A stretch of 63,976 nucleotides of DNA, the filler included, from Dugesia japonica (lineage: Eukaryota): NCBI GenBank assembly GCA_001938525.1. It is 6 parts of 6 records of this genome, joined end to end, with 100 filler letters (N's around TTAATTAATTAA, not from the genome) between each part and the next. Parts side by side here need not be neighbours in the genome. Positions count along the whole stretch, not along the records: positions 1 to 13,658 come from MQRL01241695.1; 5 more parts are not named here. One strand, 5' to 3'. Positions 1 through 59,975 of the stretch are shown here, in pieces. The translations under genes were made by a program, and so were the position numbers. The notes below the pieces were generated by a model. The model searched no databases and was not told where the DNA came from. It was given only the letters and a program-made list of their open reading frames with translations. Each line of letters begins with the position of its first letter. Within the stretch, counting starts at the first letter, position 1.

Positions 1-38
<38 letters not shown>

Positions 39-65
39 TTAATAATAATAATAATAATAATAATA
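1..65. repeat. (TAA)n microsatellite
   Basis: Near-perfect TAA run at the window start; similar runs at 42291-42343 (TTA) and 56978-57008. Confidence 0.95.
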
Positions 66-3014
66 AAAATAATTCATATATAACTCTTATATGAATTTTA
101 AAATGATTTGTAATTTCAATTTCAAATCCAAAAAGAGAAAAAAGAATATAAATAATAATAAATAAAAGAAAATTAATACATAAAGAAAAACATCAAATAA
201 AATAAAATGAAATTTAATAAAATATTTTATATCACAGAATTTATGTATCGTAATTAAAGATGACATTTTCCACCGATTAGTTGACTGGAAATTTTTTTAT
301 TAGTTTAACTCATAGGAAAATAATGAAATCCAAATTAGGCGACTTCTTTTCATCGAAAAAAAATTAGAAATAAAAATTTAAAATTAATTTTTGAAATCCA
401 TAAATAATTGTAAAAAATTTAATTTATTTAAAGTTGATTAATTTATTTTATATGGTTTGTTGAATGAAAATTTTTTGCAAGAAAATTAAAAAAATATATT
501 AATTAATATACAATTAATAAATATATGTAATTAAATATTTTAAATTGGTGAGAAACCTTGTTCTTGCTCTGCCGTCAGTAACGATAAAACAAGACAATTC
601 TTTAAAATTTTCACATTAATCATCNATGTTTATTTTCAATAATCTTTTTTTAATTAGGGCAAAAAGAGAGATAGTTCAAGTTATTTTATCTAAGAATTAA
701 TTGTGAACGTTCTGCAGTTCTAAAAATTATGTCAATCTGTTAAAGTCAGGCCAGAAAATGTAGTAGGCGAAGAATAACATTCAACTCTAGGTTTGGACGT
801 TTGAGATTGAAGTTGGTGTTGTCACGAAGAAAATCAAATAGGCAATTCCCGGTTTTTTTTACCAAAGTTTGTCGACAATTATTGAAAGTACTACTGGACG
901 TTGAAAAACTAATTGCTTTCGCTATTTATCACTCTCCTCACATCTCACTAAACATAAAATTATGAACATATTTTTATACAGTTAGGTCTTTTTTTTATTT
1001 AGATGTAATCTTTTTAGCAGCTAAAAAATTTTGAAAAATAAAATACAAACCTAATCAAAAACATGAAAATATATTAACATTTCAAAAATTAAAAAATATT
1101 GTATATTTAAAATATTTTAATCATTTTAGTCAAAAGCCCTGTCTGTAAGTTAATGCTTGGATTATAAAATCTAAATATTAACGCTTCATAAATTACTCTC
1201 TCAGTAATTTTCATTTGCTTAGACAAAATTTTTTTTTAATAATTCATTTTTCATTTTTATGTGACGGTTGATCCAACAAATAAGTGTGTGTGTGTGTGTG
1301 CGCGCAGTTGTATAAAATTAAAAATCTCNGAATTGTTTTGAAATAACCTTATAACGGAAGTGTGTGTTTTTATAAGGTAGAGTCCAAAAACATGGGTTTC
1401 AAAAGATACGTTTAAAGAGGTAATATCAATGCTTAATTAAAATTATTTGATATCATCAAATCATTTTAAAATAAAAAAACACAAATATTATTTTGGCATA
1501 ATTTAAATATTGATAAATCACAATATAGATTGTCATTATAATTCATAACTAAATAAGTAGTTTGGAGAGACCTTTATTGTGGAAATCTAATAGATGATTT
1601 GGAGTTAATTATTCTAATAGTTTTTCAATGTAAATAAATCTGTGCATATTAATTAAATGTATAAATTATCCATAAATATGAATATATGTTAATATATAAA
1701 ATAAATAAAGTCAATTCCTGACGAACACAAAGTCGAAATATCTAATCAATCTCAAAAAAACAATAAAAAACTTTTTGATCGAAGCTTTTATTTTAAATGA
1801 ATTCTAAAAAACGATTAATGGCTATGTCCAACAATTATTACGCAATAATTGCCATTGTAAAATATGTTAATATTATTGTTATTATTTATTATCTAAAACA
1901 GGCAATTTTTTCAATGTTTATATTTCTATTTTTTATTAATTATAATTGAAGTAAAAATTAAATAAAATTTAATTTGTCTAAATAGTATAAAATTAAATTC
2001 AGTTTTTATTAATTTTAAAGTAACATTTACTAAATTTTGTCATTTAACATTCTCTTCGATTGGTAATAAAAGCAATTGTTATTCTGTATTGAACTATTTT
2101 TGTGTAGCTATTTATTACATTTGCTGTGATAGTAATAAAGTCATTCTGTAATTGTTAATTTAGTAAGGTTAACTTNTAAAAAAGTTAATTATTGTGATGA
2201 ATGTATAATTATTTAATCTGTTATTATTATATCTTACCAAAATTCTTTATTAATAGTGGATTCAATTTTATGTAAATTACTATTCACATTATCAAATAAG
2301 TAATTTAAGTGAAAACTCTGAGAATGAAAATGACACCACTAACATTATTTTTATTTCTTATATTAATAATAAAATTAATAATTAAAATTCTATCATTAAT
2401 AATAAAATTTAAAATTCTAATATTAAACAAAGGTTGAAATTTTTTAATTTTAATGTTGATCTTTTTGTACTTGTTAGTAAANNNNATTTTAAAGCGATAT
2501 CGGATTTTATAAATTTAGATTTTTCAATTAAAATCTTCCCTTTTCAAAATGAAAATTGCAGATTTTAATAAAGCCAGAAATTATGAAATGAAAATTAAAA
2601 CATGTTAGATTTTATATTTTAATACGAAATTACAAATCTTTCCTATATTCATTTTCAATCTATTTTGCTAATTAACTAGACTTTATAATCCGATTTTCTA
2701 TTTAAAACTCTCATCGAAAAAAGAAACGTCAATATGACAAAAATTTATTTTTATTTATCCACATGTAAATTTAAAGATTTTTAAAATTAAAATATTATTT
2801 CATTATATAATAATTTATTCAATATATAATTAATTTTTTATTATAACATTAAATCAATAATTTTTCTATTTATTTTTCATGATTTATAAAACCAAAATTT
2901 GTAATTAACAATAACATGTAAAATTTATAGAATTTTTATTCTTTTTGATTTTGCAGGAACAAATAATATTATAGAAATAAGCACAAATATTTCGTATAAA
3001 CAAATATTAATTTA

Positions 3015-3236
3015 CTAATTTTGGTATGTACAAGTGATAGCAATTAACTTTTTATGGTTTTTCAATGCTTGTTTTCTAACTTTCCTTATAAATACATTAC
3101 CACAAACTATGTTTACAATAATCTCTGGTAAATCGTCAACAACAAATTATGGAAATGATTGCAGCAGTTTTGCTCTAGAATCTTTGGAAACCATTAGTAA
3201 TATATTTAAATATGAAAGGCTTTGTTGAAATTCCAT
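3015..3236 (-). pseudogene. Decayed small basic Polinton/Maverick protein (PW-like conserved ORF)
   Basis: Manual translation MEFQQSLSYLNILLMVSKDSRAKLLQSFP*FVVDDLPEIIVNIVCGNVFIRKVRKQALKNHKKLIAI resembles the conserved small Polinton protein pattern R.xLL...I.E...N...GNV......L..HK. One internal stop; lies just downstream of the ATPase. Confidence 0.5.
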
Positions 3237-3419
3237 AATTTTTTATTAAATATCACACTAAGGTATTTGTTTATAACATCATCCATTCTTTGTTGACTTC
3301 TTTGTTGTCTTCTTTAATATTTTGATATCATTTATTGTGGTATCTTGTTTAATCTTTTGAATTGATCAACTATAACTTTAGTAAATTTTGACATTTGTAA
3401 ATAAAATAAGAAATTACGT

Positions 3420-3520
3420 ATATTGTTTAAATATGGTAAACCGTTTGGATTGAAAATATCAGTTCTCCCTCTAAGTTCATTTATATACTGTTGTGAAATA
3501 CATAAAAAGATAATCATGTG
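3420..3520 (-). pseudogene. Polinton packaging ATPase, C-terminal part (separated by insertion)
   Basis: PHDYLF...SQQYINELRGRTDIFNP matches the Polinton ATPase C-terminal PYGYLF...ELRLRTNIFP pattern, and continues the reading from 6754 across the insertion. The left boundary is approximate. Confidence 0.75.
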
Positions 3521-6500
3521 AGTAGTAGGATAGTAGCGCGCTGGCTTACCCCCTACCCCACTCTGTGTAAAAAATGAGTTACTATTTTCCAATGTAAAAA
3601 GGCGGCGAAACACAATAATATTAAAAAAATATATATATATTAAAATTTGAAACTAAAAGACTAAACTTTCTAAGACATCATAATAAATAGAAAACGAATA
3701 TACTAAACTTTAAAGCCAACGCTTTAAAATTCAAAATCAATAGATAAAAATCTAAATCAATAAATAAATTCCAAACTAATACTCTAAAAGTTTAAAACAA
3801 CACATCAAGATTCAAAATCAATATATGAAAATCTAAACTAATGCATAATAATTTCAAACTAATTCACTAAACCTTTATACCAACTTCAAAAAAAATGAAA
3901 CACATTACATAAAAATTATAAACCAATACGCAGAATTTGCATTCAAAATTATAAAATTTTAACCTGTAATACAAATATTTTAAACCAACACAACAAAAAT
4001 TGTAACATATTACATAACAAATTATAAACCAATACCCAAAATTTACAATCAAACTTATAAATTGTAAACAATTATACAAAAAATCTAAACTAATACATTA
4101 AAATTCAAACCCATTACACAGAATTTACAACCAATCATGCAGATAATTAAAACTAACACAATAAATTTATAACCCTTCATACAAAACTTTTAACCAATAT
4201 ATAAAAATTCAAAACCAATACACTAAAATTGTAATAAAACACATAAAAATTCAATAATTAGAATTCATAACAAAGTATTGTAATCTAACATAGAGAAATA
4301 CAACATCTAACATAGAAAATGTTCAAAAATTAGAATCCATCACACAAAATTGAAATCTTACTTAAAAATTTGAAATCCATCATAGAAAATATTAACCAAA
4401 CATATAAAAGTTATATAAGGTGCATGGCAATTATAATCTAACATAAAGTTTCGAAACCAATCTATTAAAAATAACTTAATACATTCAATAAAATTAATAA
4501 ATACAATTATTTGATACAATTAAGACCCATAATATACTCAATCTATTTAATATATTCAATATAATCTACCAATTCATCAAATTTAATAAAAGCATTCAAT
4601 ACATTTGACTTACTTATTTCATCGAGATTTCTTTATTACTCTTTTTAATACGGTTAAAAAGCCAATGATCACTGCAAGCATGAAACATCTTATAAATTAA
4701 GTTAAATATACTTAATCAACTAAAAAACATTCAACAATATAAATAAAACATATAGTATAATAAACTCATAAAGCTAATACAATGTATCTACTAATCTAAT
4801 CACCATAGTTACTTAATTTAATGTTTACTTCTTTTAACCTACTTCATTCATAAATTAATTAAATAATAAATTAAATCAATCAGATCCTATACCAATTATA
4901 TTGAACCTTAATGTAACAAATGAACTCAAAAATTTCAATAGATATATTAACATGAAAAAAATATTAACCGAGTCAAAACTTTAAAATATCACTAGTGACA
5001 AAGTTTGAATATAAACATGGATAAAACTCGAATAAATCACAAGGGGTAAAAATTTTAAGAACAACCTTGTAAACATTAACTATTAACCTAAGTAAAATTT
5101 AAATACCTCCAGGATAATTAACCGATAAAAATTAATCAAATAAAAATTAAATACCATCAGGGAAAATTTATTAACAAAAGAAAAGGTCCAAAAAAATGCT
5201 AACCTGAGACAAAACTTTTAAGAACATGAGAGCAAAATTAAATATAAACCAGAGAAAATTCTTAAAAAACAACCTGGAAAAAATTAATCTATGTAAAAAT
5301 TCTATAATAAAACCATGAAAAATCTTATATAAAATACTGTTGAAAATCTATAGATAAAAAATTTAAATATCATCGGCGAAAAATTGAAAAATACGAACAG
5401 AGTCAAAAATACCACTGTAAAATCTATACATAAAAAAATTAAATACTACTGAGGAAAAATAAATTGATCTAAAAATATTATATAAGAAATTATATACCAC
5501 CGAGAAAAAATTCTTATATAAAAAATTTAATTACTTAAAAATTAACTATTAAAAAAAATACTTAAACTTAACGAATTAAAATACTACTGGTGAAAATTTT
5601 ATATAAAATATTTTTTTTCTAAAATTAACTTCTAAAAATCAACTACCTAAAAATACTACCGGTGAAAGTCTATAATGAAAAATTTGATTCTAAATTTAAC
5701 TGCTGAAAATATTTTAACATACCAACAGAGTCAAAAATATCACTGTTTAAAATCTATAAATGAAATACCGCTGAGAAAACTTCTAAAATAAGCCGGTGAA
5801 AATCTTATATAAAATACTTAACTACTTCAAAAATAACGGCATAAACTTAACAGATTAAAATATTACTGGTAAAGTGTTATATAAAAAATTTGATTCTATT
5901 AAAAATTGCTCAATTTAAAAACTAACCAATATAAACTTATTCTATGTTAAAATCTTTTAAAAAAAATTATAGAGTAAAACTTAACTACTTAAAATTTTTT
6001 TTAAAATTCAACTACTTGAAAATTAACCTATTAAAAATATAGAGGGATAATTACTATCTTAAAATTCTAAAATAAACTACTAAAATTTTATTTAAAAAAT
6101 TAAATACCCTGGAAGAATAAACTGTAAAACTTAACTTAAAATTTACCTGTTAAACTTATCGTAGAAAACATTATAGAATTAAAAATTATTCGAGTAAAAT
6201 TCTTATATAATACTTTTTTGGAATTTCTTATTTATTATTATTGTATTATTAGTATTATTATTGATTATATGTGTTGTGTTATATGTATAGTTTGTAATGT
6301 GTTTCTAATTGTGTTATAATTTATAATGTATTTATAATTTGTATTTATAGTTTATAATTATTATTTTCAATTTATAAAAATTTTTATAAGATTTAAAATA
6401 ATTTAAAGTGAAATATTTAAACAAGAAAAAATTCCCTATATAAATTTAAATAATTTTACAATAATTTTAAAATAAAAAATTTGCGCAAAATTTGAAATTT

Positions 6501-6753
6501 GAAAAAATTTGAAAAAATCCAAATATTTTGAAAATATTTCCAAAAAATTCGAACTAGTCGCACAAAAAGTACGAACAAAAGTTATGTAATCGCACATAAA
6601 TTTTGTTCGTCGCCTATTTACATTGAGAATTTTCCAACTCACTTACGTAATCACACACAAATGTGTTTCGCCGCCTTTTTACATTAGAAAATAGTAACTC
6701 ACTTTTTACACACAGGGGGAAAGTGTGAGCCAGTGCGCTACTATGCTTCTACT
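3521..6753. mobile_element. Non-autonomous Polinton/Maverick-like element (3.2 kb, ~93-bp TIRs, 6-bp TSD)
   Basis: Left end AGTAGTAGGATAGTAGCGCGCTGG...AATGTAAAAAGGCGGCGAAACACA (3521-3614) is inverted against the right end (6662-6753). Flanks are CATGTG (3515-3520) and TATGTG (6754-6759). It splits an ATPase ORF; the interior is non-coding periodic A-rich repeats. Confidence 0.85.
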
Positions 6754-7251
6754 TATGTGGATTTACGTTTGCATTAATCTAAAAGAAATTGTCTATTGTT
6801 TGGATATGCTTGGCTTTCGAGAAATCAACAAATGTTTGATCTCTTGTATTTTTAAATAGAACTAAGTATTGTACCTTTGAATTACGAGTTCTCAGTCCAC
6901 CTCTTTGTTGGAATAGATTCTGAGTAATTAATATTATTGTCACATTACAGTGTTTTGATATCTTGGTGAATAAATTTTAAAGTCTTTTTTCCTTGTTTAT
7001 TTCCTGGTATAAATCATCAACAACAATCACATCAACGTTAGTTAATCTCTTGCTCTAATTCTCATCAAAACCATTTATAATTTTCATTTTTATATCACAG
7101 AATTTGGATTGAGTTAATCCATGTTCCTCATCAGTTTCTCTTTGCCAATATATTTAGTTGAATTTTGATTTTAATAATTTACATACAAATAGAGTTTTTC
7201 CACTTCCACTTGGACGAAAATTTTGTAAACAGTATCATTTCTTAATTCCAT
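6754..7251 (-). pseudogene. Polinton packaging (FtsK/A32-like) ATPase, N-terminal part
   Basis: ATG at 7251. Walker A (x)PSGSGKTLFVCKLL, Walker B NVDVIVVDDL, then YLVLFKNTRDQ and QAYPNNRQFLLD. Frameshifts and stops present. Confidence 0.85.
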
Positions 7252-7331
7252 TATTGTTTTTTTATTTTTCCAATTAAATTATTGTTTATTTATATGTATA
7301 TATTCACTTTTAAAAATTTATTGACATAATT

Positions 7332-7760
7332 ATGATTGCAAATATTACTTATAGAGGTAACGTTTCACAAAAGGTTACAAGTAAAATGAATTTTCCCGTT
7401 GTCAAGCCATCACAAGTTGCCGAAAAAACTAGAAAATATACGTTAGTATTCTTCAAATTTGGAAGATGAAGAATCATGGAATGTAAGAAACTCTTGGAAA
7501 GAAAACATTTACAATATGATATCAACAAATGTTCAACTACAGTCACTTGCAATCGTTATTTATATGATTTAGCAAGAAAAACTAAATGCATGTATGAACC
7601 TGAGATATTTCTTGGGTTATAATTAATAAAAAATAATCCAGTTTGTGTAAATGTGTTTTCATCTAGAAAAATAGTCTTTGTGGGAATCAAAATATTAGGT
7701 TATCAACCTCGAGTAAATGTTGTGATATCTAATTTAAATAATTTAAATAGAAAAATCTAA
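7332..7760 (+). pseudogene. Intronless, divergent TATA-binding-protein-like gene inside a Polinton remnant
   Basis: Single frame of 143 codons with two internal stops. It contains TLVFFKFGR*RIMECK and MYEPEIFLGL*LIKNNPVCVNVFSSRKIVFVGIK, matching the two TBP repeats (TALIFSSGKMVCTGAK; YEPELFPGL...LIFVSGKVVLTGAK). Confidence 0.75.
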
Positions 7761-7936
7761 ATCAATGCTGAATACATGATCAACACATGCACGAAATATG
7801 TACAATACATGCATGAAGCATGTGCAATACATGAAGGAAGCTTGCATTTTGCAAAACATGAACAAAGAAGATGACTCATAAATATTTGTTTGATAGAAAT
7901 GTATAAAAAAATGACTAAAAATCAAATTGATAAATA

Positions 7937-8315
7937 TGAGTTACAGATTTTAACGATGATAATGAATTTTCAGAATTTGATGAATTTGGTATATATACAA
8001 GACCTAGACAAGATAAATATCATATGCATGAAATCAATAGAGTAAAATATTAGTTTATTTATTAACATTGATTAATTAATTAATTTGTATTTAGAAATTG
8101 ATAAAGACATTTTAGAAGAATAATTCTATAATTTAAGAGGTGATTCTGTATACTCGGGTCCTGAATTATATTGGCATCGTGTTAAAATGTATACCAGAGT
8201 TGACATAGTAGAAACCATCAAAATCTACTTTCATGAGCCAATCAGTTGCCTTTATTCTCGCACATATTGTCAACTAACAAAACTCAGAAAAATTATAAAA
8301 CAAGTTATTAAATAA
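7937..8315 (+). pseudogene. Decayed small spliced accessory gene of the Polinton remnant, unknown product
   Basis: ATG, then GTAAAA...TATTTAG (~50-nt intron), a second segment (...GDSVYSGPELYWHRVKMYTRVDIVETIKIYFHEPISCLYSRTYCQLTKLRKIIKQVIK*) and AATAAA. Frames are disrupted. Confidence 0.35.
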
Positions 8316-8899
8316 ATCTTAGTTAATAAATCTTGTTTTTTCATTGTGTTTATACTATTTATTGTTTTTTATATAAAATTATAAGACAACAGTGATAAAA
8401 TACATTAGTAATAACTAAATGATATGTTCAAATTAAATTATTTATTAACATAACAAATCTAATATATCTTTTGCATGCTTTTAACTTTCCCTATAGGATC
8501 CATGAGATATTAACATCGGGGAGAATCTAATGTTAATATTAATATTGAAGGAAAAAGCCTCAAATATTTTATGTCAATATTGCCCGGCGATAATTACTGC
8601 AATTATTGCCCGACTCGGCTAATGATAATATTACCGAAGCGCGTCTAAGTGCTTGAGAATAATTTTGTTTAACTACTTACAAATTTGAATATTTTCATTA
8701 ATTAAAACAAAAAATTAAATTTCCGGTGATTACGTAATGGCTACGTTTATTAATTATTAAAAAAAAGAAAAATACGGGCAAATATAACATAATCATATCG
8801 TTCCCACTAAATATATGTAAAATTTATACACTGCTATTACGTAATCACATGCACACCTCTTATCTATTTTATCGTCCCACTAAATACACGTAAAATTCT

Positions 8900-8968
8900 T
8901 ACACGGCTAAACATTTTCTATTCCGGGTTGGAGGGGTTTGTTGTGTTATGCGCTACTATCTCACTACT
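8900..8968 (-). mobile_element. Polinton-like terminus (right end of the ATPase/TBP-bearing remnant)
   Basis: Reverse complement reads AGTAGTGAGATAGTAGCGCATAAC followed by a C-rich tract; same consensus as the 3521 and 6753 ends. Confidence 0.7.
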
Positions 8969-10030
8969 GGTATTAAAGTGTGCTGTTGTTTGCCAAAAAA
9001 ATGACTAGTATTTTACTAATAAAACTTGGGAAATAAATTTTAATTGAAATTTCCTATAACAAACAACTCTCATTTTTTATATGACACCAAAATAAATAAA
9101 ATTATAATAAATTCTTTTAATTATAAAAAACAAGTAATTAAATAAAGTATTTGAATAAATAAATAATAAATTTTAAAAAATTTCAATATTTTCCAAATTT
9201 GTTAACATGTTTTCTTGTAAATATCGAAGGAAAACTAAATGAAAACATGAACATTTGTAGTTCTGCTCAAATGAACAAACTAATGTAAAAAACACGTGCA
9301 AATGCAATGATTATTTGAAACAAAGAAAAAAATTAACCAATAATTATTTTTAATTATTTACTATTTGAAATAATTTCTAAAATTTTGGATTAAGTATTTT
9401 GAAAATTCAAATAAATTATTGTAAATTAATTTATTTACAATCATTCTTATGTAATAATATTAATTAGAAAATTAAAACAAATAATAATTTACTCGGATTT
9501 AGATATTGCAATTAAAATAAAACTAAAATTTGTCAACGTTAAATATAATACTAAATTGAAGTAATTTATCGAAATAATTGAAATTCATAGTCTTGGAAAA
9601 TAATTTTAGAAATTATTTAAACTATAAAAGTATACATTTAAAGGAATTTTAAAATAACAAATTTTTCAAAAAGCATATCTCCAATAATGCATTATGTACA
9701 CTTTACAAATATGACTCTACCTTCTAAAAAGATTCCGATAAAAATAGTGCTGGAATCTTGTAAGTATTTGTAAAATTAAACATCATGTAATAAATATTAA
9801 CACGTGACATTCGTTTAAGTCTGTACTATTTAAATCTTTATTGATTAAATAATACATCAATTCCAAATGTCTGCAAATATTCCAGAAAGGCAACATTTTC
9901 AGGAAGTCATACTTCATATTATTTCTTTCAACAAAAATTATATAAATCGTCAAATAACAATGAAATAATTTTTAAAAAATAAATATGAATCAACTAAAAC
10001 TAATAAAATCTATAATTTAGCCTATAATTA

Positions 10031-11460
10031 CACTGCCCAGGATCCAAATTTTTATCACAGAAAAATTTTATTATGCATCTCGACTCGCTGATCACAAAAA
10101 TGTATACTTTTAATAGTCCATTAGTCTGGTTTTTGAGATAATTATGTTTTAAGGATTTTTTGTATTTATGGTAATTTAAACTAATTTATATTAATTAAAA
10201 ATCATATCATGTCAAAATTATTTAAATAATCGCATATTTGAGGTATTTTAAATTAAATGACACACCGGTGATGCATCAATAACCCATACCATTTCTGTTA
10301 CATCTGTGGGGAATATGTTTTCAAAGATTACAGAATGAGCATTGTACCAGTCATAAAGAATAGATTTACAACATATTTCAAAATGAAATTAGGCGACCAG
10401 GATAAGTCTTTTGCTCCTCATACTGTATGTAGAAAATGTTCTTCATACTTGTCCATGTTTTTAGCAGGTAAGATAAGTAACTTACCGTTTAGTACACCGA
10501 TGGCTTGAAGTGAGCAAAAAACTATTATGAGGATTGCTATTTTTCTCAAACCAGGGTGTCTAGTTTTAACAAGATATCAGCAGAGCATATTTAATATCAA
10601 GATTTGATATCAGCAATAAGATTGATACCATATAATAAGGATGAATATACAATGGTTCTTTATCCAAACAGTGATATATCTGACATAACTAGTGATTTTT
10701 TAGCGCATGATGATAACAATGATGAATGGAAAAATGATAATTGCAATCAAATCAGGTAACATCAATCAAATGTCTTTGTTCGTGGATTAGGGTTATCAAA
10801 GAAANNNNNNNNNNNNNNNNNNNNNNNNNNNNNNNNNNNNNNNNNNNNNNNNNNNNNNNNNNNNNNNNNNNNNNNNNNNNNNNNNNNNNNNNNNNNNNNN
10901 NNNNNNNNNNNNNNNNNNNNNNNNNNNNNNNNNNNNNNNNNNNNNNNNNNGGTTTGCTGAATAAGCTTAACATAAAATCTAATGTCATCACGGATTGGTG
11001 GCTTTTTATTGATGACAGCACAACATAGTATAAAGTTTGTTCTCCTACGAATTTCCTGCCATTCCGATTGCGTATTCAGGGGGAGCCAGAGGAAAAATAT
11101 GACATTATAAAATATTTTATGGATATGCATTACGATAACTTTCGATGGAATACTGGCGTAGATCTAAAGTGAATTGGCATCTTGACAGGATTGCAAGGTG
11201 GTTACACCAAATACTGCCGCTTCCTATGCTTATGGGATAGTAGGGCACGTGATCAGCACTATATAATTAATGAATGGCCAAGTCGTGTGAACCGCATACC
11301 TAGGCAAGGTAATATCAAGCATAAAACACTTATTGACGTACAGAATATCTTATTGCCTGCTCTTCATATTTTGTTAGACCTTTTTAAGAACTTCATCAAA
11401 ACTTTAAAGCCTGAAAGCTAAGCAATGCAAGCAATGAAAAAACATTTTGCGCAGTTACCA
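10031..11460 (+). mobile_element. Chapaev3-type (CMC) DNA transposon, decayed, 3'-truncated
   Basis: TTA|CACTGCCCAGGATCCAAATTT 5' end. Transposase motifs FCYICGEY, LGDQDKSFAPHTVCRKC, WWLFIDDS, GLQGGYTKYCRFLCLWDSRARDQHY, LLPALHILL. Confidence 0.8.
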
Positions 11461-11785
11461 TGAAACAAGCTGAGATTATTAATTTTTAAATCTGGAGATA
11501 AAGCCGGCTGGTTCGTAAGAGTTACTGTTGGAATTAAACTGTCCTGAAAATCATTAAATCTTTGTACGTTGTTTTTACCAATATGTGGACGAGCATTATT
11601 CAGTTGAATAAAAACGTTTTTGCACCAGTACATTTGTTTGAGATTGCAGACATGATTTTATTACACATTAGCTTGTAAAAGATGGTAGAAGTCATTGTTC
11701 AATAGACTTTGTAAACATCATCTTTTGCGTGGTTTTTTTTAAGATCGCTGGGCTACGTGATCTTCTTGAATCCTTGCAAATAATT
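11460..11785 (-). mobile_element. Tc1/mariner transposase fragment, DD39D-like
   Basis: AQRS*KN..., VFIQLNNARPH...QPALSPDLKINNLSLF resemble IFIQQDNARPH...QPPNSPDLNVLDLGFF; about 40 residues between the 2nd and 3rd catalytic positions. Confidence 0.65.
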
Positions 11786-12695
11786 TACAATTGTTAATTA
11801 AATAAATTTTACCAAGAATAATTTTCAATAATCAATTAATTTAGTCTTCCAACGAAACTATCTGATAATTAATTATTTCAAATATCCAACAGTTTTATAG
11901 TTTATAAATAATACATAATTTTGTAACTTACTAAATAAACTCAATTTCTAAACAAACTGTTTTCGTTAAATAAAAGCTAATTTCAATAAAAAAATAAAAA
12001 TAATTGAAACTATATATTTACAAAAAACACTTAAAACATTCTAAAATACATTCACGCCTTAAAGTCATAATAATAATGTATTATTTCGCTTACTAATACA
12101 GAGTTTCTCATATAAATGAACTATTTTGTCAACTATAAAAAACTATTAAAATAAAATACCTCTTGTTATTAAAACTATTTTGAGTCAATTTTAAATTTAA
12201 ATTGCATCTGGACGTCATCATACAACATAAGAAGCAACTGCCTGATGAAACTAAGAATGAAATTATACCAAACTACTAATCAGGAAAATTACATATAGAT
12301 ATTAGCACGGACCTCTAAGTAAAATATGAAAATAGTACCTATGCAAGTATGAAGGATAAATTCTAGCACGACAGGTCATAGAAAATTACAGCAGATATTA
12401 TGAACTTTATAAAAACAAAGATCAGTGAAGATGTTTCCGTTACTCTAAAATCAACCAAAAGTTTATTGTACGCTTAAAAAGAAATCAGTGTTTTTATATC
12501 GACAATCAAACTGGCAATACAGACCTCTATTTATATAGTTATCTATTTTGTTTGATAAAATTGTTTTTTTACTTGTCAAAATAGTTAATTTATGTATTGA
12601 TAGAAATGTATTAATATCACTATTTTGTAAATTCAAGATCATTATAAACCATTTTAAAATAAAAATACCAATATTGGTAATAATAAATTTAATTA

Positions 12696-13314
12696 TTAGG
12701 TTGTAAAGAAATAAATGGTGGCTTTTAATTATCAACTTTAAATTAACATATCTTATTTCAAACAAACTTTTATTAATGAAAATAAAACTCATTAATATGT
12801 ACAATGTTTCCCAATACGATTTATTTATTCCAATAGAATAGATATTTGGCTTTCTGAATGCAACGAAATCTTTAGGCAATAGTGACAGCGTCTCGGCTTT
12901 TGAAGGATTTTACGTCTAAGAACTTTTCCAAATGTTAGAAGAAATGGTAATCAGTAATCGAGTGGTCTGGTGAGTATGCAGAGAAAGACAAACTTTCAAA
13001 GCCATACTGGTTTAATTTTTATAGCATAGATGGTCTGACGTGTGGTTAGGGCGTTGTCATAGAGAATCAGTGACTTCTTTCTGTTGAAAAAGGCCATATG
13101 GCTTAAGTTGATTTNNNNNNNNNNNNNNNNNNNNNNNNNNNNNNNNNNNNNNNNNNNNNNNNNNNNNNNNNNNNNNNNNNNNNNNNNNNNNNNNNNNNNN
13201 NNNNNNNNNNNNNNNNNNNNNNNNNNNNNNNNNNNNNNNNNNNNNNNNNNNNNNAAAAAAACCATCAAAACAAACAAAACATTGAAAAACCACAATTTAT
13301 TTTTTTATAATCAA
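12696..13314 (-). mobile_element. Internally deleted mariner (DD34D-like) element
   Basis: TA|TTAGGTTGTAAAGAAATAAATGGTGGC left TIR and an inverted counterpart ending AATCAA|TA. C-terminal transposase LILYDNA...AYSPDHSITDYHFF...YSIGINK. Confidence 0.7.
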
Positions 13315-13759
13315 TACATGAGACTGCGGTAATTCAAAGGTTAATCGAAAATTAAAAATATTTGTATAATTAACTATAAATTTATTAATGAAAATATATC
13401 AATTTTAAAATATTATTTTTAAAAGAATTGCATACTTAATTCTGTTTGTACGCGATAGATACGTTCTGCGGCAACTCGCATAAAAACAGATACCTTATCC
13501 ATAAAAAAATGTGGTTCTACATTTTAAATATCAGCTAAAATAAGGTGAATAAAATATAATGTAAATTCATGTTTTTTATGTGCTTTATACACACATTTTA
13601 TTTAAGCAAATAGTAAATTGAAAAAGAATAATTCATTTAATATTATTTTGTAAAAAAANNNNNNNNNNNNNNNNNNNNNNNNNNNNNNNNNNNNNNNNNN
13701 NNTTAATTAATTAANNNNNNNNNNNNNNNNNNNNNNNNNNNNNNNNNNNNNNNNNNNNA

Positions 13760-15547
13760 GATATTGAAGCTGTTCTTGTACCAGAAGAAGATAGTAGTCT
13801 AGTAAAACATGTTCTTATAGCTGTAAAGCTTTTATTAATTCCATTACTGGATCAAACAATAAAATGCAAGTACTATTCGTTTTCTGGTACCAACTGTTTG
13901 GTTGAGTTTCTACAATGCATTGATTAATTGGTTAATAACGTAATAACCCTTTGGTATAAGAAAAATATGTATGTGTAAATGAACTTGACAACATCAGATC
14001 AAGAAGCCTTTACGAAAACACAAGAAGCAATAAAAACAAGTTGGTTTGTGATCATGATCACTATATTAGAAAATATCTCGGAGTTGCATGCAATAAGTGC
14101 AATTTATCACGCAAGGTTAGAATAAAGTTACCTGTTGTGTTTCATAAATTTAAAGGTTATGATTCACATCACATTATCTAATATGCGCTCAACAAACTNN
14201 NNNNNNNNNNNNNNNNNNNNNNNNNNNNNNNNNNNNNNNNNNNNNNNNNNNNNNNNNNNNNNNNNNNNNNNNNNNNNNNNNNNNNNNNNNNNNNNNNNNN
14301 NNNNNNNNNNNNNNNNNNNNNNNNNNNNNNNNNNNNNNNNNNNNNNNNNNNNNNNNNNNNNNNNNNNNNNNNNNNNNNNNNNNNNNNNNNNNNNAAAACA
14401 AGGGTATATTCCCAGACAAATTTGCAATTTCATATGAAATGCTCGAAAATCAAACCGAATTACCAGCACAATGGTCAGAAATAACAAGTGAAGAATATGA
14501 AATCGCAAATTCGGCATGGATAGAATCAAAAAGCAATAACTTGGTGGAAAATATAATGTATTATATAAAGCTAGATATATACTTGTTGGAAGACGTCTTT
14601 CAAAAATTTCGCAAAAAAGCACTTGAAGAGCATGGATTAAAGCCATTACGATTTGTTTCATTGCAAGGATTGAGTTGGTCAAGTGCTCTCAAGTCGATGT
14701 ATAGTTCCATAGAACTAATCTAAGATGCGTAAATTCATTGACTATTTGAATTGGGAAATTGTGGAGGAATAACGTTTGTGAAAAAATATTATGTTCAGGC
14801 AGATAAGAATACATCACTGCTTTACATTGATATTACTAATTTATATGGTTGGACCATAACACAGCCTTTACCATATAAAGATTTTGAATTTATATCAGAA
14901 AATCAGAAGAAGAAACATACCAGAAGATGTTCGCAAATACCAATAATGAGATTGAGTACCTGCTTGAAATTGATCTTGAAATACCTATCTCAAACATTTA
15001 ATAGATGTCAATGAAAATGATCAAATATTTACTAGAAGTATATAAAATTATCTACAAATTACTAGAATGTCTGGATATTACATTAACCAAGTGGTTATAA
15101 ATTTGAGTAAAGTGCGGATGTATACGCTTCAAGATGAAGAGCTGGAAAAATATCGTCAACAATTGCTTTGTAAAATTTATATTATTGCTGGAGATACAGA
15201 TAGTTTTTTCATATCATGTACTGGAGTAAAAAGAAACTGAATGGATATTCCTAAGGCTAAAATGTTATAGTTTGAAGAAAGCAGATGCTAGTATGACAAT
15301 GAAGGCAAAAGCAATCATTTTAAAACAAACGAACAATTATCATAAAAATTATTTAAATGCATATAACAATGATGGAGACGTAGAAGAACAACCAAACAAG
15401 GTTATGCAGACTAGGCTCCAATCAATAAATCAGCAGATTTACACAATAAAGAGTAANAAACGCGTGTTGTCTTGCCTCGATGATATGCGCTTTTGGAGCG
15501 AAATAAATACTAGTAATGCATATGGTCATAATAAAATTAATAATTAA
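13760..15547 (+). pseudogene. Polinton/Maverick protein-primed DNA polymerase B, decayed
   Basis: VCDHDHYIRKYLGVACNKCNL (endonuclease VII-like), PVVFHKFKGYDSH, DIYLLEDVFQKFR, LQGLSWSSALK, CGGITF, YIDITNLYGW...QPLP, IAGDTDSFF, KRVLSCLDDMRF...AYGH. Confidence 0.9.
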
Positions 15548-24747: not shown

Positions 24748-25281
24748 GAATACATAATCATCTAGTCTTTTTGATGTTTGTATAACATTCTTTCTCTGAG
24801 TCTAGATTTCCTACATCTTCTTTAATATGAATGGGTGGACTACTTGGTTTGAATGTAAAGAGAATGGACTACGCAAGCAGATTATGTAAATTTAATGTAN
24901 NNNNNNNNNNNNATGAGTTAGTTAAATTGAATGAAATGTTATATTTAAGTGTATTTAAATTCTTTGTAATTTATAATTTACTATTTTTTTTGTAACAGTT
25001 AAAATAAACTTAGCTAATAAAATTTAATTTAAATATCTAAAATTCAAAATTATGCTATTAAATTATTAATAGGATTAATATGATTAAGCAAAAATAATGA
25101 ATTTATAAGAATTTATAATAATATCGGGAAAATATTCAAATAAAAAATGTAAAATCTGCTCACAAATTTTAAGAGTAAATANNNNNNNNNNNNNNNNNNN
25201 NNNNNNNNNNNNNNNNNNNNNNNNNTTAATTAATTAANNNNNNNNNNNNNNNNNNNNNNNNNNNNNNNNNNNNNNNNNNNN

Positions 25282-27976
25282 TTCTATAACTTTTTTTGCT
25301 TTCATTCGTAAATTTATATCATATGCATCAGATAATGGAATAAATCTTTCTCCAAAACTATTATTATAAGCAAAAAATTAAAATTATTATGCTGAAAAAT
25401 ATACCTATTCTCATTATGGCCTACAAGTGGATTTAAGCCACATAATCCTGGAAAGTTGATGTGATCTTTGATTATCATCAAATCACCAACTTTATAAGAA
25501 GGATTCAGCCCACCAGCAGCATTAGTAAGTAATAAATATTTCACTCCAATCAAATGCATCACTCTCATTGGTATTGTGCACTTTAGTTAATTGAATTACT
25601 CTTTTTAATTAAACAATATTTTAAGTCTTACAGTTTGAGTAGTATAGCCTTCATAAGGATGAAATCTCCCTTGCATAAGCACCACTTCTTTATCTCTTAA
25701 GTTTCCAAAAATCAAATTTCCTGCATGCCCAGTAACTATAAAAAGTAAATTCATTGTAATATATTTTAAAGCTCCTTTCATTGTTTCGACATTGAATAGA
25801 TAACTTTTGTGATATTATCGTTTGTATGTATGTTTTATTGTATTTTATTTGTTTTTTCTTATGTTTACGTTGAATGCTGTTTACGTTTTCTTGCTATCGA
25901 ATTAAGTAACTGAGAATGTGACTATTAGTGCTAGTTGTTGTGTTTTTTGAGACTCAAAATATAAATGACGTAATATTCCCAGAACAAAAATAAATAAAAA
26001 TAATTGACTGTGAATGTGGAAAACAACTTCACCAACACACGCCACACTATCATAGGTCAGATGAAGAAATTGCTAAATATGTATCCGGAATAGTTATTGC
26101 AATCTAATCTAGTCTAATTTTATCTAATCTAGAAAATCTATCGAATTTTAATAATGAAGAACTTAATATTCACTACAATGTTTATTTTACAATTGCAATT
26201 ATTGCGAGAATAATTGTTGGACTTAACCATTGATCGTTTTATAGAATTCATTTAATATAAAAGCTTAAATCAAAATTTAAATTTTGATCTAAGCTTTTAT
26301 ATTAAATGAATACAATGTTTATAATTGTATTTTAAAGATGAATAAAATAGAGATATAATATCTACAGAATTATTTAATGAATAAATTTATTTTGAAGACG
26401 CATTTCTCTCCGAATTAAATACATTGAAGACACATCTGATTACTTATATTTATAAAAATTAATTTTGAATCCTTGTGGGTTAACTTAAGTATTTTATTAA
26501 CATAACTGATAAAAGTTGCAAACATGGAGCAGTATTTATCGCAGTTGAAAATCGAAAAACTTAATCGTTAAAGGAAAACAATCAAAATTTCATTAATTGC
26601 AAGCGAAAATGACATTTGCGATAAGATTAACGGAAAATAATAACTGATTTAGAATGATAGAACAATGATTGCAAAGTTGTAACATGCTATGATAACATTG
26701 TCAAACCAGAAAGTGCAGTAACAATTTTGATTTGATTCATAATTATAAATAATTATATAAAATATTTTAAATATTATAAACATAATTGGTTATTACCTTT
26801 TGTCTTTTAGTTGTTGCTAATATTTTTATGTTACTTCTATGTTGTGTACTTTTATATTTTGGAATTTTACGATAAATTATTCATTTGTGTTTTGCACATA
26901 TCTATGTATCTAAAACAATTTGCATAATGTATAAAAAGTTTTATTTTCTTTATATCTTACGAGCAAAATGTTACAATCATGCAGTTTTAAAATGTAAAAA
27001 AAATTCGTTAGGTTTATGCAATATTTTACGGATCTACTAAAAACAACGCCTCCAAATTTACACTATTTAAAACTAATCAAAGTTTTAATTAGATCCTTTT
27101 TTACAACGTAAATTTGGAAGGGTCCAGATTTTGAAGTTTGGTTAGAAAAACTATAGAAGGTAGCACCGATACTTCATGTCAACATAATTCATTTTAACAG
27201 TCCAAACGTTACTTCTAGGTATTCAAAAATATGATACTTAATACCGTATAAATAATAAACATTTAAAAATAAATTTGAAATATACACATCATATGTTATT
27301 CCGTCATCTGTATTCAGATAAAACATGTCATTCCTTCTATTATACGCAATAAAACAAGGTAGCATAATAANNNNNNNNNNNNNNNNNNNNNNNNNNNNNN
27401 NNNNNNNNNNNNNNNNNNNNNNNNNNNNNNNNNNNNNNNNNNNNNNNNNNNNNNNNNNNNNNNNNNNNNNNNNNNNNNNNNNNNNNNNNNNNNNNNNNNN
27501 NNNNNNNNNNNNNNNNNNNNNNNNNNNNNNNNNNNNNNNNNNNNNNNNNNNNNNNNNNNNNNNNNNNNNNAATAAATAGCAATAATAAATAAATAACAAA
27601 CGATGTATTCAATAAAGAAACAGTACTATTATATTTAATAAAAATTTACTATAATTTTCTATTAACAATTTACCATTGTATAATAATATTAATATAAATC
27701 AATATAAATGTGACTATTAAAAATAGTTTTTAAATTTTAATTATCTAATTTGTTTTTATTCATATACACATTATTTAAAACATCGTAAATACAATTTTAT
27801 TAACCTGTACTCTTAGGAAATCCATCTATTTCAGAATAAGGAATTATTTGAGAATTTTTAAGAATGTCTGCTAATCCACCCAAACCAGAACCACAAATTA
27901 TAGCAATTCTAGGTCGAAATTTAGTTTTATTATTAATAAATGAAGCTATTTCGTTTAGTTTTTCAAATGAAACCAT
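25282..27976 (-). CDS. PNP: Purine nucleoside phosphorylase (trimeric type), partial: exons 27976-27805, 25735-25632, 25580-25405, 25357-25282 (runs into gap)
   Basis: Spliced translation MVSFEKL...[14 protein letters not shown]...[14 protein letters not shown]|[10 protein letters not shown]...[11 protein letters not shown]|[13 protein letters not shown]...TNAAGGLN...DHIN.PG..G.NPLVG.NE.S|[13 protein letters not shown]. All introns are GT-AG with consistent phases. Confidence 0.97.
26246..26311. repeat. 66-bp near-perfect palindrome in PNP intron 1
   Basis: ATTCATTTAATATAAAAGCTTAAATCAAAATTT|AAATTTTGATCTAAGCTTTTATATTAAATGAAT, with one mismatch. Confidence 0.9.
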
Positions 27977-28609
27977 TTTAAATCTAAATTTTACAGTGAA
28001 ATTAAGTACAACAAATATCTGGTATAAATCAGGTATTAAATAAGCTGCATATATTTAGTAAAATATATTTCGTATAGGTGTTTAAATAGAGGCACAAAAA
28101 CCCAGAGGCGTATTGATTGCTTTAAACAAACATGATAAAAACTTTATTTTTAACAATTACAGCATATTTTTTCTTGTAAGTAGTGGAAAATTAATTTCTA
28201 AGAAAAGAATGAAATTTATTAAACTTTTCTATACATTATCATTTAGTGTCTTGCCACCTGGTACACTTCTTTAGAAAGTAGTCCTAAAAATACTTGGCGG
28301 TTGATCAGTCCAAATTAACTGCATCACAATAGTGTATTTTATATGACTTTGTTGATAAAGGCGGTGCACTTTTTTAAACTGTTAAATGTAATATCTTTCT
28401 GTTGTTAGATTTGAAATTTACATTAGAACAGTTTTAATAAGATGTTAAATGCTAATTTATAATTGTAGTATTACATTCAAAAAATAATTAATTAAATATA
28501 TTAAATATTTAATTAATTTTGTTTATATCCTTTATTTTATTGAAATATATACTTTTCAAATTACTTGGATTCCTTTGATTTCAATTATGTCATTCGAAAT
28601 TGATTACAA

Positions 28610-33510: not shown

Positions 33511-34152
33511 TACATAATTATCGAGTTCATGAAAATATCTTTTAGCGTTNNNNNNNNNNNNNNNNNNNNNNNNNNNNNNNNNNNNNNNNNNNNNNNNNNN
33601 NNNNNNNNNNNNNNNNNNNNNNNNNNNNNNNNNNNNNNNNNNNNNNNNNNNNNNNNNNNNNNNNNNNNNNNNNNNNNNNNNNNNNNNNNNNNNNNNNNNN
33701 NNNNNNNNNNNNNNNNNNNNNNNNNNNNNNNNNNNNNNNNNNNNNNNNNNNNNNNNNNNNNNNNNNNNNNNNNNNNNNNNNNNNNNNNNNNNNNNNNNNN
33801 NNNNNNNNNNNNNNNNNNNNNNNNNNNAATATCGATAAAGAATAATTTTATTTACAATATTCACAATATCACAATGTCAAAATTGTTCTCTTTCCTTCTT
33901 TTTGTTCATGTNNNNNNNNNNNNNNNNNNNNNNNNNNNNNNNNNNNNNNNNNNNNTTAATTAATTAANNNNNNNNNNNNNNNNNNNNNNNNNNNNNNNNN
34001 NNNNNNNNNNNGGTGTTCAGAGATAATAAATACAAAAGCAATACATAAAAATCTCTATTAAATCTACATGTTTATGTGATTCATTTTGTTTTAAAATAAA
34101 ACAGCATTTTTCTATTTTCTAGTCTACTTTATTATTACCAACAAAATTGTAA

Positions 34153-42343: not shown

Positions 42344-42444
42344 NNNNNNNNNNNNNNNNNNNNNNNNNNNNNNNNNNNNNNNNNNNNTTAATTAATTAAN
42401 NNNNNNNNNNNNNNNNNNNNNNNNNNNNNNNNNNNNNNNNNNNT

Positions 42445-55501: not shown

Positions 55502-55999
55502 NNNNNNNNNNNNNNNNNNNNNNNNNNNNNNNNNNNNNNNNNNNNTTAATTAATTAANNNNNNNNNNNNNNNNNNNNNNNNNNNNNNNNNNNNNNNNNNN
55601 NTTTATCGTGGCGCATGGAATTTATGAGACATTGTACTGTAAGATTTGTATACTTATAAATAAATGATATCAATCATGGTATTTTTTAAACGCTTTTTTA
55701 ACTCCCTTAATTTATTTTAACTGATAATGTTACTTAATAATTTGATGCTATAACAATTTTAGTAAATACGCAAGATACGGAATAACAGATGGAAACATAA
55801 GAACATAACCGTATTAGTTTTATAGAAAATGATGGGGAGTGATTTTTAAAGTTACAAACTATATGTGTTAACGGATCACCTTTACAGCATTTATTAGAAC
55901 TTTTATATCAACTTAAATTGTCGAATTAAATGATAAATACCAATATTAACAAAAGAAAAATTTTTTATGATCAAGTTTATTAATGATAATGTAAGGAAA

Positions 56000-58375: not shown

Positions 58376-58744
58376 ACTGTGAAACCTAACATCAACTAAC
58401 AACTCTGGCTGACATATGAACAAAGTGTTGCTCTATGTACAAAAAACTACCAGGTGAAATATTGCAGTTGCTACAAAAGAACGCGAATTTGCGCGAAAGA
58501 AACGTTAAGCTCAAACAAAGGGATCTCACTGAGTTGTGTTGAATGATGGCTGATATCATCAAAACGTATGTAGATCGAGAAAGTGTCCTCAACAATTTTC
58601 AGTATCTTTTATATAAATAAAATTTGATTTGTTTTAATACTCAGTTTTGTCTTTGAGTAACAGAAATAGATAAGGACATTAAATCCTAAAATTAATGTTT
58701 AGTTAACGTGTTCAACATCGCTCTTAAAATTATTTCATTCATTA

Positions 58745-59975
58745 CATTGCTCGGGGTCCAAATTTCTTCAGAGGTCGCATAAACATTTTATTATGCATCT
58801 CAACACGCTGATCACAAAAATGTATACTTTTAATAGTCCACCGTGTCTGGTTTTTAAGATAATCATGTTTTAAGGTTTTTTGGTATTTATGGCAATTTAA
58901 ATTAATCAATGTTAATTAAAAATCATATCATTTAAAAATTGTTTAAATAATCGCATATTTGAGGTATTTTAAATGAAATGGCAAATCGGTGATGCATTAA
59001 TGACCCAAACCATTTCTGTTATATCTGTGGGGAATATGTTTACAAAGATTACAGTATGAGTATTACACCAGTCATAAAGCATAGATTTAGAATAAGCTTA
59101 GCATAATATCTAGTGTCATCACGGACTGGTGGCTATTTATTGATGGCAGTACAACTAGTGTAAAAGTTGTTCTCCTACACAAGGAAAACGAATTTCCTGC
59201 CATTCCGATTGCATATTCCAGGAAGGCAGTCGAATTTTATGACATCATGAAATATCTTATGGATATATTGTATTACGCTGACGTTTGATGGAATAATAGC
59301 GGAGATCTTAAGTTAATTGACATCTTGACAGGATTACAAGGTGGTTACATTAAATACTGTTGCTTCTTTTGCTTATGGAATAGTAGGGCACCTGATCAGC
59401 ATTATATAATTAATGAATGATCAAGCCGTGTGAACCGCACATCTGGGTTAGCCAATATCAAGCATGAACCGCTTGTCGACGTAGAGAACATATTTTGCCT
59501 GTTCTTCATATTAAGTTAAGCCTTTTCAAGAACTTAATCAAAGCTTTAAAGCCTGAAAGCCATAGTCAAAAATTAAAGAATATATTTTGGTTGAACCACA
59601 AGTACGGAAATTAATGAGAAATAAGCATTTCAGATATGGCGTAAATCAAATTGAATTCCGAGCGTGGGAAGCAATGTTAGATACTATCAATAACTTTTTT
59701 GGTTAGTATTCTTGTTACCATATCTAAATAAAGCCATATCTATTTTTAACAGGTAAAAACCGTTCCCTGTAATACCAAAATACTGTGGCTAAATTAATGG
59801 ATACGTTAAAAGAAATTGGTGTTAATATGTCGCTAAAAATAGTGTTACCTCAGCTTTTTCCCTAAATATTTACGGAAAATTAGTGAAGAGAATGGTGAAA
59901 GATTTCACCAGACGATAAGTACCATCAAAAGGCGATACCAAAACCGTGCTGATGAGTGCCTGATGGCGGATTTTA
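58745..59975 (+). mobile_element. Chapaev3-type transposon, second copy, internally deleted
   Basis: TTA|CATTGCTCGGGGTCCAAATTT end; high nucleotide similarity to 10031-11420; adds C-terminal SEENGERFHQTI. Confidence 0.85.

Follow-up and report, generated by a model that had tools for sequence, protein, structure and literature searches.

TBPs encoded by viruses are already known in herpesviruses and in giant viruses, which mostly carry their own RNA polymerase. The beta- and gamma-herpesvirus factor (vTBP; ORF24, BcRF1, UL87) works with TATT late promoters and binds RNA polymerase II directly within a six-protein complex, as set out in PMC6541308. A self-encoded TBP paired with a late box would explain, in a form open to testing, how capsid and packaging genes are expressed in animal Polintons and bear on their need for a helper virus; it would also mark the late genes at the sequence level. 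Starrett et al. 2021 (PMC8502044) give adintovirus-type genes as restricted to animals, and a "TBP" label stands in a MELD-virus figure legend (Fig. 5) of the section on non-animal datasets and may denote this family; beyond that legend, neither the available text of the paper nor that of its supplement discusses "TBP". Searches of the open-licence literature and bioRxiv (including TATAAACA, promoter and late genes) returned no study of the TBP-like family or box described here. The copy through which we reached the Polinton family and its box is dead, and the interest lies in the family that it revealed.

That copy lies in a window of 63,976 nt from the Dugesia japonica assembly GCA_001938525.1, whose pieces are joined by identical N44-TTAATTAATTAA-N44 linkers (13659–13758, 25182–25281, 33912–34011, 42344–42443, and 55502–55601); genes across a linker are therefore not true neighbours. 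The host is AT-rich, and its transposon content, taken with the animal restriction of adintovirus-type genes, fits an animal. The TBP-like frame at 7332–7760 (+) comprises 142 codons plus a terminal stop, is decayed by internal stops at codons 46 and 97 and by probable small indels, and shows no intron-sized gap, in agreement with the intronless gene of the initial annotation. The two stops recorded there are present, and the damage extends further: The copy is ~8 residues shorter than its nearest relative and matches poorly around residues 65–77. Pfam TBP (PF00352), searched as that annotation had proposed against the stop-read-through translation (X at stops), scored above the cut-off (E 2.1e-5; 24.7 bits against 22.9), and the PDB matches with E ≤10, 34 in number, were without exception TBP-containing chains (best E 1.7e-4). 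The annotated TBP fold is thus borne out, although repeat 1 is shortened and not a full copy; the PF00352 match is confined to the second repeat. The nearest relative is protein P0017 (56% identity, E 5e-53); the match to canonical eukaryotic-type TBP, to which a processed pseudogene would be closest, covers 35 residues only (E 0.004).

The gene sits in a truncated Polinton remnant. Read from the terminus, the order is a decayed frame, the TBP-like gene, the 5' part of an ATPase, a nested element, the 3' part of the ATPase, and a pX-like gene. The outer terminus is Polinton-type (AGTAGT...; 8950–8968, −), read on the minus strand from 8968 and located 1,208 nt past the TBP-like gene, with no partner end within 1–13658. 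The frame between them (7761–8315, +) is repeated in host DNA runs; it has no significant Pfam hit and no match to the ORFs of the 50 loci described below. On the other side, an A32-type packaging ATPase typical of Polintons starts with an ATG at 7251 (−), leaving 80 nt between the two gene starts, so both annotated distances (80 bp between ATGs, ~1.2 kb inside a terminus) are accurate. The 5' part of the ATPase (6755–7251, −) carries a frameshift near its start as well as stops; its identity to the ATPases of relatives reaches 63% (lowest E 1e-49), and its Pfam Pox_A32 hit (E 0.0018) falls short of the curated cut-off. The 3' part beyond the nested element (3332–3514, −) matches the C terminus of the L005 ATPase weakly (E 6e-4) and has no Pfam hit. 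It is followed by the decayed pX-like gene (3027–3236, −), which matches at E 2e-12 a family that comes after the ATPase in relatives and that has weak Adeno_PX matches in two of them. Within 1–13658, nothing matched an integrase, a capsid, a protease, or a polymerase.

Polintons are recognized by terminal inverted repeats with AG-rich ends and by a 6-bp target duplication. The 3.2-kb element inserted in the ATPase gene (3521–6753) is bounded by terminal inverted repeats of ~92 bp (86% alike) with AGTAG ends; the flanking 6-bp target duplication agrees at 5/6 positions (3515–3520 and 6754–6759). Degenerate AT-rich repeats fill the element, host DNA runs contain it many times over, and no Polinton genes were found inside it; it is likely a non-autonomous derivative of a Polinton whose insertion hit a Polinton ATPase gene.

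Host DNA runs contain many related copies of the gene region, some extending across both gene starts, and most contigs over the two stop codons differ there from the window copy, which is one decayed member of a repeated family. The window gene is a dead copy from a large Polinton-borne family of intact proteins. RNA reads on the stretch are sparse and mostly <90% alike, coming from other copies, and say nothing firm on expression; no strand switch between the divergent TBP-like gene and ATPase appears in them.

A decayed gene for a protein-primed DNA polymerase B that includes an endonuclease VII-like domain (13969–15529, +) lies on a separate piece; this pPolB (~13.97–15.53 kb) was considered as part of the same Polinton and rejected because the linker at 13659–13758 intervenes. 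Two fragments (11421–11800, −, and 12880–13110, −) resemble mariner/Tc1 transposases by their motifs, and a 79-aa piece has no Pfam hit. A decayed transposon-like repeat whose start is rich in Cys and His occurs in two copies, 82–86% alike, at 10027–11418 and 58741–59560. Pieces of a host purine nucleoside phosphorylase gene, apparently split by introns, lie at 25317–25586 and 27803–28054 (−), the former with a Pfam PNP_UDP_1 match, and LTR-retrotransposon-like frames were noted by eye at ~28.6–38.9 kb and ~61–63 kb.

The family search, proceeding from the window copy to one intact relative and on to 35 close hits, yielded 99 proteins at E up to 1e-10 (50%-identity representatives, the weak end including some canonical TBPs). 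A profile search at E up to 1e-10 returned 541 proteins, canonical TBPs among them; the 120 matches listed are 139–213 aa long and derive from metagenome or raw-read assemblies. The family proteins found in this way are ~150 aa and consist entirely of the TBP fold, and an Atlas search returned TBP clusters only, with thin taxon records. A quick maximum-likelihood tree of 79 rows (46 of the 106 family proteins selected by motif, 14 ORFs from the loci described below, 19 TBPs of canonical type, and the window copy) places the window copy as sister to P0017 (SH-aLRT 99) within a short-form clade (SH-aLRT 99). Phylogeny against TBP, another check proposed at the outset, sets the family apart across a long branch (SH-aLRT 99) from the 19 canonical-type rows, which are unlabelled database proteins sorted by motif and include no TRF2/TLF. 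A longer family form (L043:9995–10501, L045, L049) keeps more of repeat 1, which the short clade has lost.

Intact relatives reside beside Polinton genes. A metagenome scan with the TBP-like gene recovered 50 loci, corresponding to about 34 elements at 85% nucleotide identity; all were selected for carrying the gene and they share ancestry, so the tallies below are counts over non-independent loci, not probabilities. A Polinton core or hallmark gene is present in 24/50 loci (18/34 elements). Among the remaining 26, 16 share another gene family with the 24 and 10 share none, nine of these being <2 kb and one 3 kb. L011 has all of pPolB, integrase, capsid, and protease; L038 and L043 each have three of these. 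A Pfam run on 112 hand-chosen ORFs of 270 identified A32 ATPases, rve integrases with chromodomains, adenain-type proteases, pPolB, PLA2, and pX, and no RNA polymerase or TFIIB-like gene among those scanned; a conserved ~410-aa ORF has no sequence hit but folds as a double jelly-roll capsid. Scans of viral contigs with P0002, with an L043 member, and with alignments of the family, the ATPase, the capsid, and the integrase returned 0 loci, and hence no TBP-less Polintons as controls. The TBP-like gene and ATPase are co-oriented in 14/15 loci holding both; the head-to-head arrangement reported for the window is real there and therefore local. With intact copies next to Polinton genes, these loci support a Polinton-borne gene, as judged from gene content, over a host retrocopy.

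Several loci carry accessory genes—ubiquitin-conjugating enzyme, LRR, RING, and KilA-N proteins in L011:225–719, L022:1918–3327, L037:1710–2168, and L043:7145–8002. Often, directly upstream of the TBP-like gene and behind a late box, there is a conserved gene of ~165 aa (L022:156–674 and 12 related ORFs) whose product contains acidic and Cys/His residues; by eye it resembles a DEDD/Maelstrom-like nuclease, and it has no Pfam hit.

The predicted P0017 model (pLDDT 96.8) aligns with yeast and human TBP over 146–147 residues (Z 13.7, rmsd 2.5). Cellular TBPs are its best matches, at about 21–27% identity in structure alignments, and both this model and the Pfam hit of the window copy indicate the TBP fold of two alpha/beta repeats arranged as a saddle. 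The model shows the whole of repeat 2, whereas repeat 1 has a short first helix and is predicted without its second strand, long second helix, and stirrup, with ~10 residues fewer than canonical TBP before strand 5 and ~13 fewer after it. The family is thus predicted to form a full saddle minus the second helix and stirrup of repeat 1.

Residue usage was counted over the 99 new hits, chosen by E-value only and not by motif. The yeast residue numbers and the list of DNA-contact positions are anchored by the positions in PMC1636458 and by structure alignment. Three intercalating Phe residues are kept in 99/99, not the four of canonical TBP; the Phe99 column is empty in 99/99, within a loop of uncertain alignment. 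The C-terminal stirrup is retained (E186 in 95/99, P187 and E188 in 99/99), and PMC10005294 assigns TFIIB binding to this stirrup in TBP. The canonical TATA contacts are not: Eight concave-face positions are replaced in 90–99 of the 99 hits (V71N 96, V122R 98, T124M 99, N159S 94, V161T 90, I194R 97, V203C 99, and L205N 99). Mutation at yeast TBP positions 194, 203, and 205 alters specificity (PMC1636458). Replacements this close to invariant suggest selection for a new binding surface on the DNA face; DNA binding and bending by family proteins are putative. By TBP symmetry, the repeat 1 changes would face the downstream half of a bound box.

The genes of these elements fall into two promoter classes. 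The putative late set comprises 39 ATPase, integrase, capsid, protease, and pX genes, assembled solely on the basis of protein family. ATAAAC ranks first among the 6-mers in their upstream regions (sense 35/39, reversed 0/39), with each of its single-base variants in ≤7/39. As (C/T)ATAAAC on the sense strand ≤130 nt upstream, the box precedes 35/39 late-set genes, leaving 4/39 without it, vs. 2/40 TBP-like genes. All 12 ATPase genes carry it (12/12; shuffle mean 0.7), ten of the sites lying 32–37 nt before the ATG, as do 7/7 capsid genes. The box is retained even where it falls inside the coding end of an upstream ORF, which happens in two reading frames, and Ile-Asn is written ATAAAC in 27/58 cases in the last 150 nt of ORFs vs. 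13/174 elsewhere; the constraint therefore acts on DNA. Elements with the longer family form (L043, L045, L049) carry the same box, so the trimming of repeat 1 is not needed for it. In the window remnant, an exact (C/T)ATAAAC box lies at 3269–3275 (−), 39 nt before the pX-like ATG, and a one-mismatch box at 7284–7290 (−), 39 nt before the ATPase ATG, against a background of 0.27 per kb per strand elsewhere in the window. Ten loci (L001, L005, L011, L016, L021, L037, L038, L041, L043, and L045) have a conserved "YKQ/HKR" near the C-terminal end of the ATPase; in several, this apparent protein motif may be the late box of the next gene within the coding strand.

The TBP-like genes belong to the other class. 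Canonical TATA precedes 17/40 (shuffles 5.9) and is absent from the upstream 150 nt in 23/40, and a CCAAT box precedes 10/40 (shuffles 0.8). TATA followed 20–31 nt on by a TCA(C/T)T-type initiator occurs in 17 upstream regions, belonging to the TBP-like gene and to three further gene families, vs. 0/30 late-box sites; in c7b, one of these TATA-initiator families, two of three genes also have the late box.

We consider it fairly probable that the protein is an early viral TBP that reads the (C/T)ATAAAC late box and recruits host TFIIB and Pol II. Host TBP would transcribe the early genes, the TBP-like gene included, from ordinary TATA promoters; the Polinton TBP-fold protein would then bind the non-standard box, dock host TFIIB through its stirrup, and recruit RNA polymerase II, so that the packaging, integrase, capsid, protease, and pX genes would be switched on late. 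Family members would accordingly be expected to prefer (C/T)ATAAAC DNA over TATAAAAG or random AT-rich DNA. The steps that we infer are early/late timing, direct box binding, the recruitment of TFIIB, and an escape from those host regulators that act through the lost surface. The broader proposition—that a widespread lineage of animal Polintons runs an early-to-late programme with a minimal TBP of its own, that the remodelled saddle of this TBP reads a C-containing box disfavoured by host TBP, and that it docks host TFIIB and has shed the surface for TFIIA, NC2, and other regulators—seems to us evenly balanced between right and wrong.

The strongest competitor, which we hold to be possible yet doubtful, is that the protein acts as a decoy or repressor through TFIIB or through host or early viral TATA, the late box being read by host TBP or by a forkhead factor. 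In its favour, the family conserves the stirrup and has lost one intercalating Phe, and the short clade lacks helix 2 of repeat 1. That helix is reported to be the TFIIA/NC2 surface of TBP (PMC2577341). Host TBP, moreover, tolerates some TATA variants, to go by PDB titles. We take the C of the late box to be the same base as C(−25) of PDB 1qn3. According to the title of that entry, a host-type TBP was crystallised on this C(−25) TATA variant, and the late box may therefore be a weak host TATA. Against this, yeast TBPm3 selections disfavour C in the downstream TATA half (PMC1636458), and the box occurs in the sense orientation only, at a TATA-like distance. ATAAACA fits the forkhead consensus, but the common forkhead form GTAAACA is found in just 3/39 late-set regions. 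Nor would a pure protein decoy need near-invariant new residues on its DNA face. The initial annotation had left open whether the gene encodes a virus-borne transcription factor or a decoy; the promoter data (35/39 vs. 2/40) favour the transcription factor.

Less likely still is a role outside transcription, with the protein binding the box or terminal DNA to bend it during replication or packaging. Replication initiators do contain TBP-fold domains (Z about 7, weak fold matches), and the gene is near a terminus in the window; the boxes, however, stand before gene starts in sense orientation and not at ends, and the TFIIB stirrup is conserved. That the gene is a processed pseudogene of host TBP or a TBP paralogue landed in a Polinton by chance is highly improbable despite the intronless, stop-broken window copy, given its 56% identity to an intact family member and bare match to canonical TBP, the hundreds of intact relatives, many beside Polinton genes, the separation from the 19 canonical-type TBPs of the tree, and the many related copies in host DNA runs, where most contigs covering the two stops differ; the initial argument against a host retrocopy stands.

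If the broader proposition above is correct, the family would provide the smallest natural altered-specificity TBP, with a trimmed regulatory surface that could be useful in studies of how Pol II initiation is redirected, and it would be evidence that these Polintons are helper-independent nuclear viruses.

Compared with known systems, the loci share with adintoviruses and animal Polintons, as presented in PMC8502044, a pPolB with endonuclease VII domain, an integrase with chromodomain, and an A32/FtsK ATPase, together with an adenain-type protease, double jelly-roll capsid, PLA2, and pX. With cellular TBP (PF00352), the family has in common the two-repeat saddle, three of the four intercalating Phe, N69, and the C-terminal YEPE(L/I)F stirrup; cellular TBP differs in possessing Phe99 and a full repeat 1, whereas the family lacks Phe99, has a shortened repeat 1, and replaces eight DNA-face positions. 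Giant-virus (Nucleocytoviricota) TBPs and poxvirus VITF-3 are likewise virus-borne and diverged within the TBP fold (PMC12917281), and the P0017 model matches viral TBPs in BFVD more weakly than cellular ones (best E 1.6e-8 to 1e-6, 13–22% identity). Herpesvirus vTBPs are long (BcRF1 model 577 aa), with a Pol II-binding region and five required partners, whereas the Polinton proteins are ~150 aa and no such partners were identified for them here; the family retains the TFIIB stirrup, and its box is (C/T)ATAAAC, not TATT. What the two systems would have in common, by analogy, is a virus-encoded TBP-like protein matched to a modified TATA box before structural genes.
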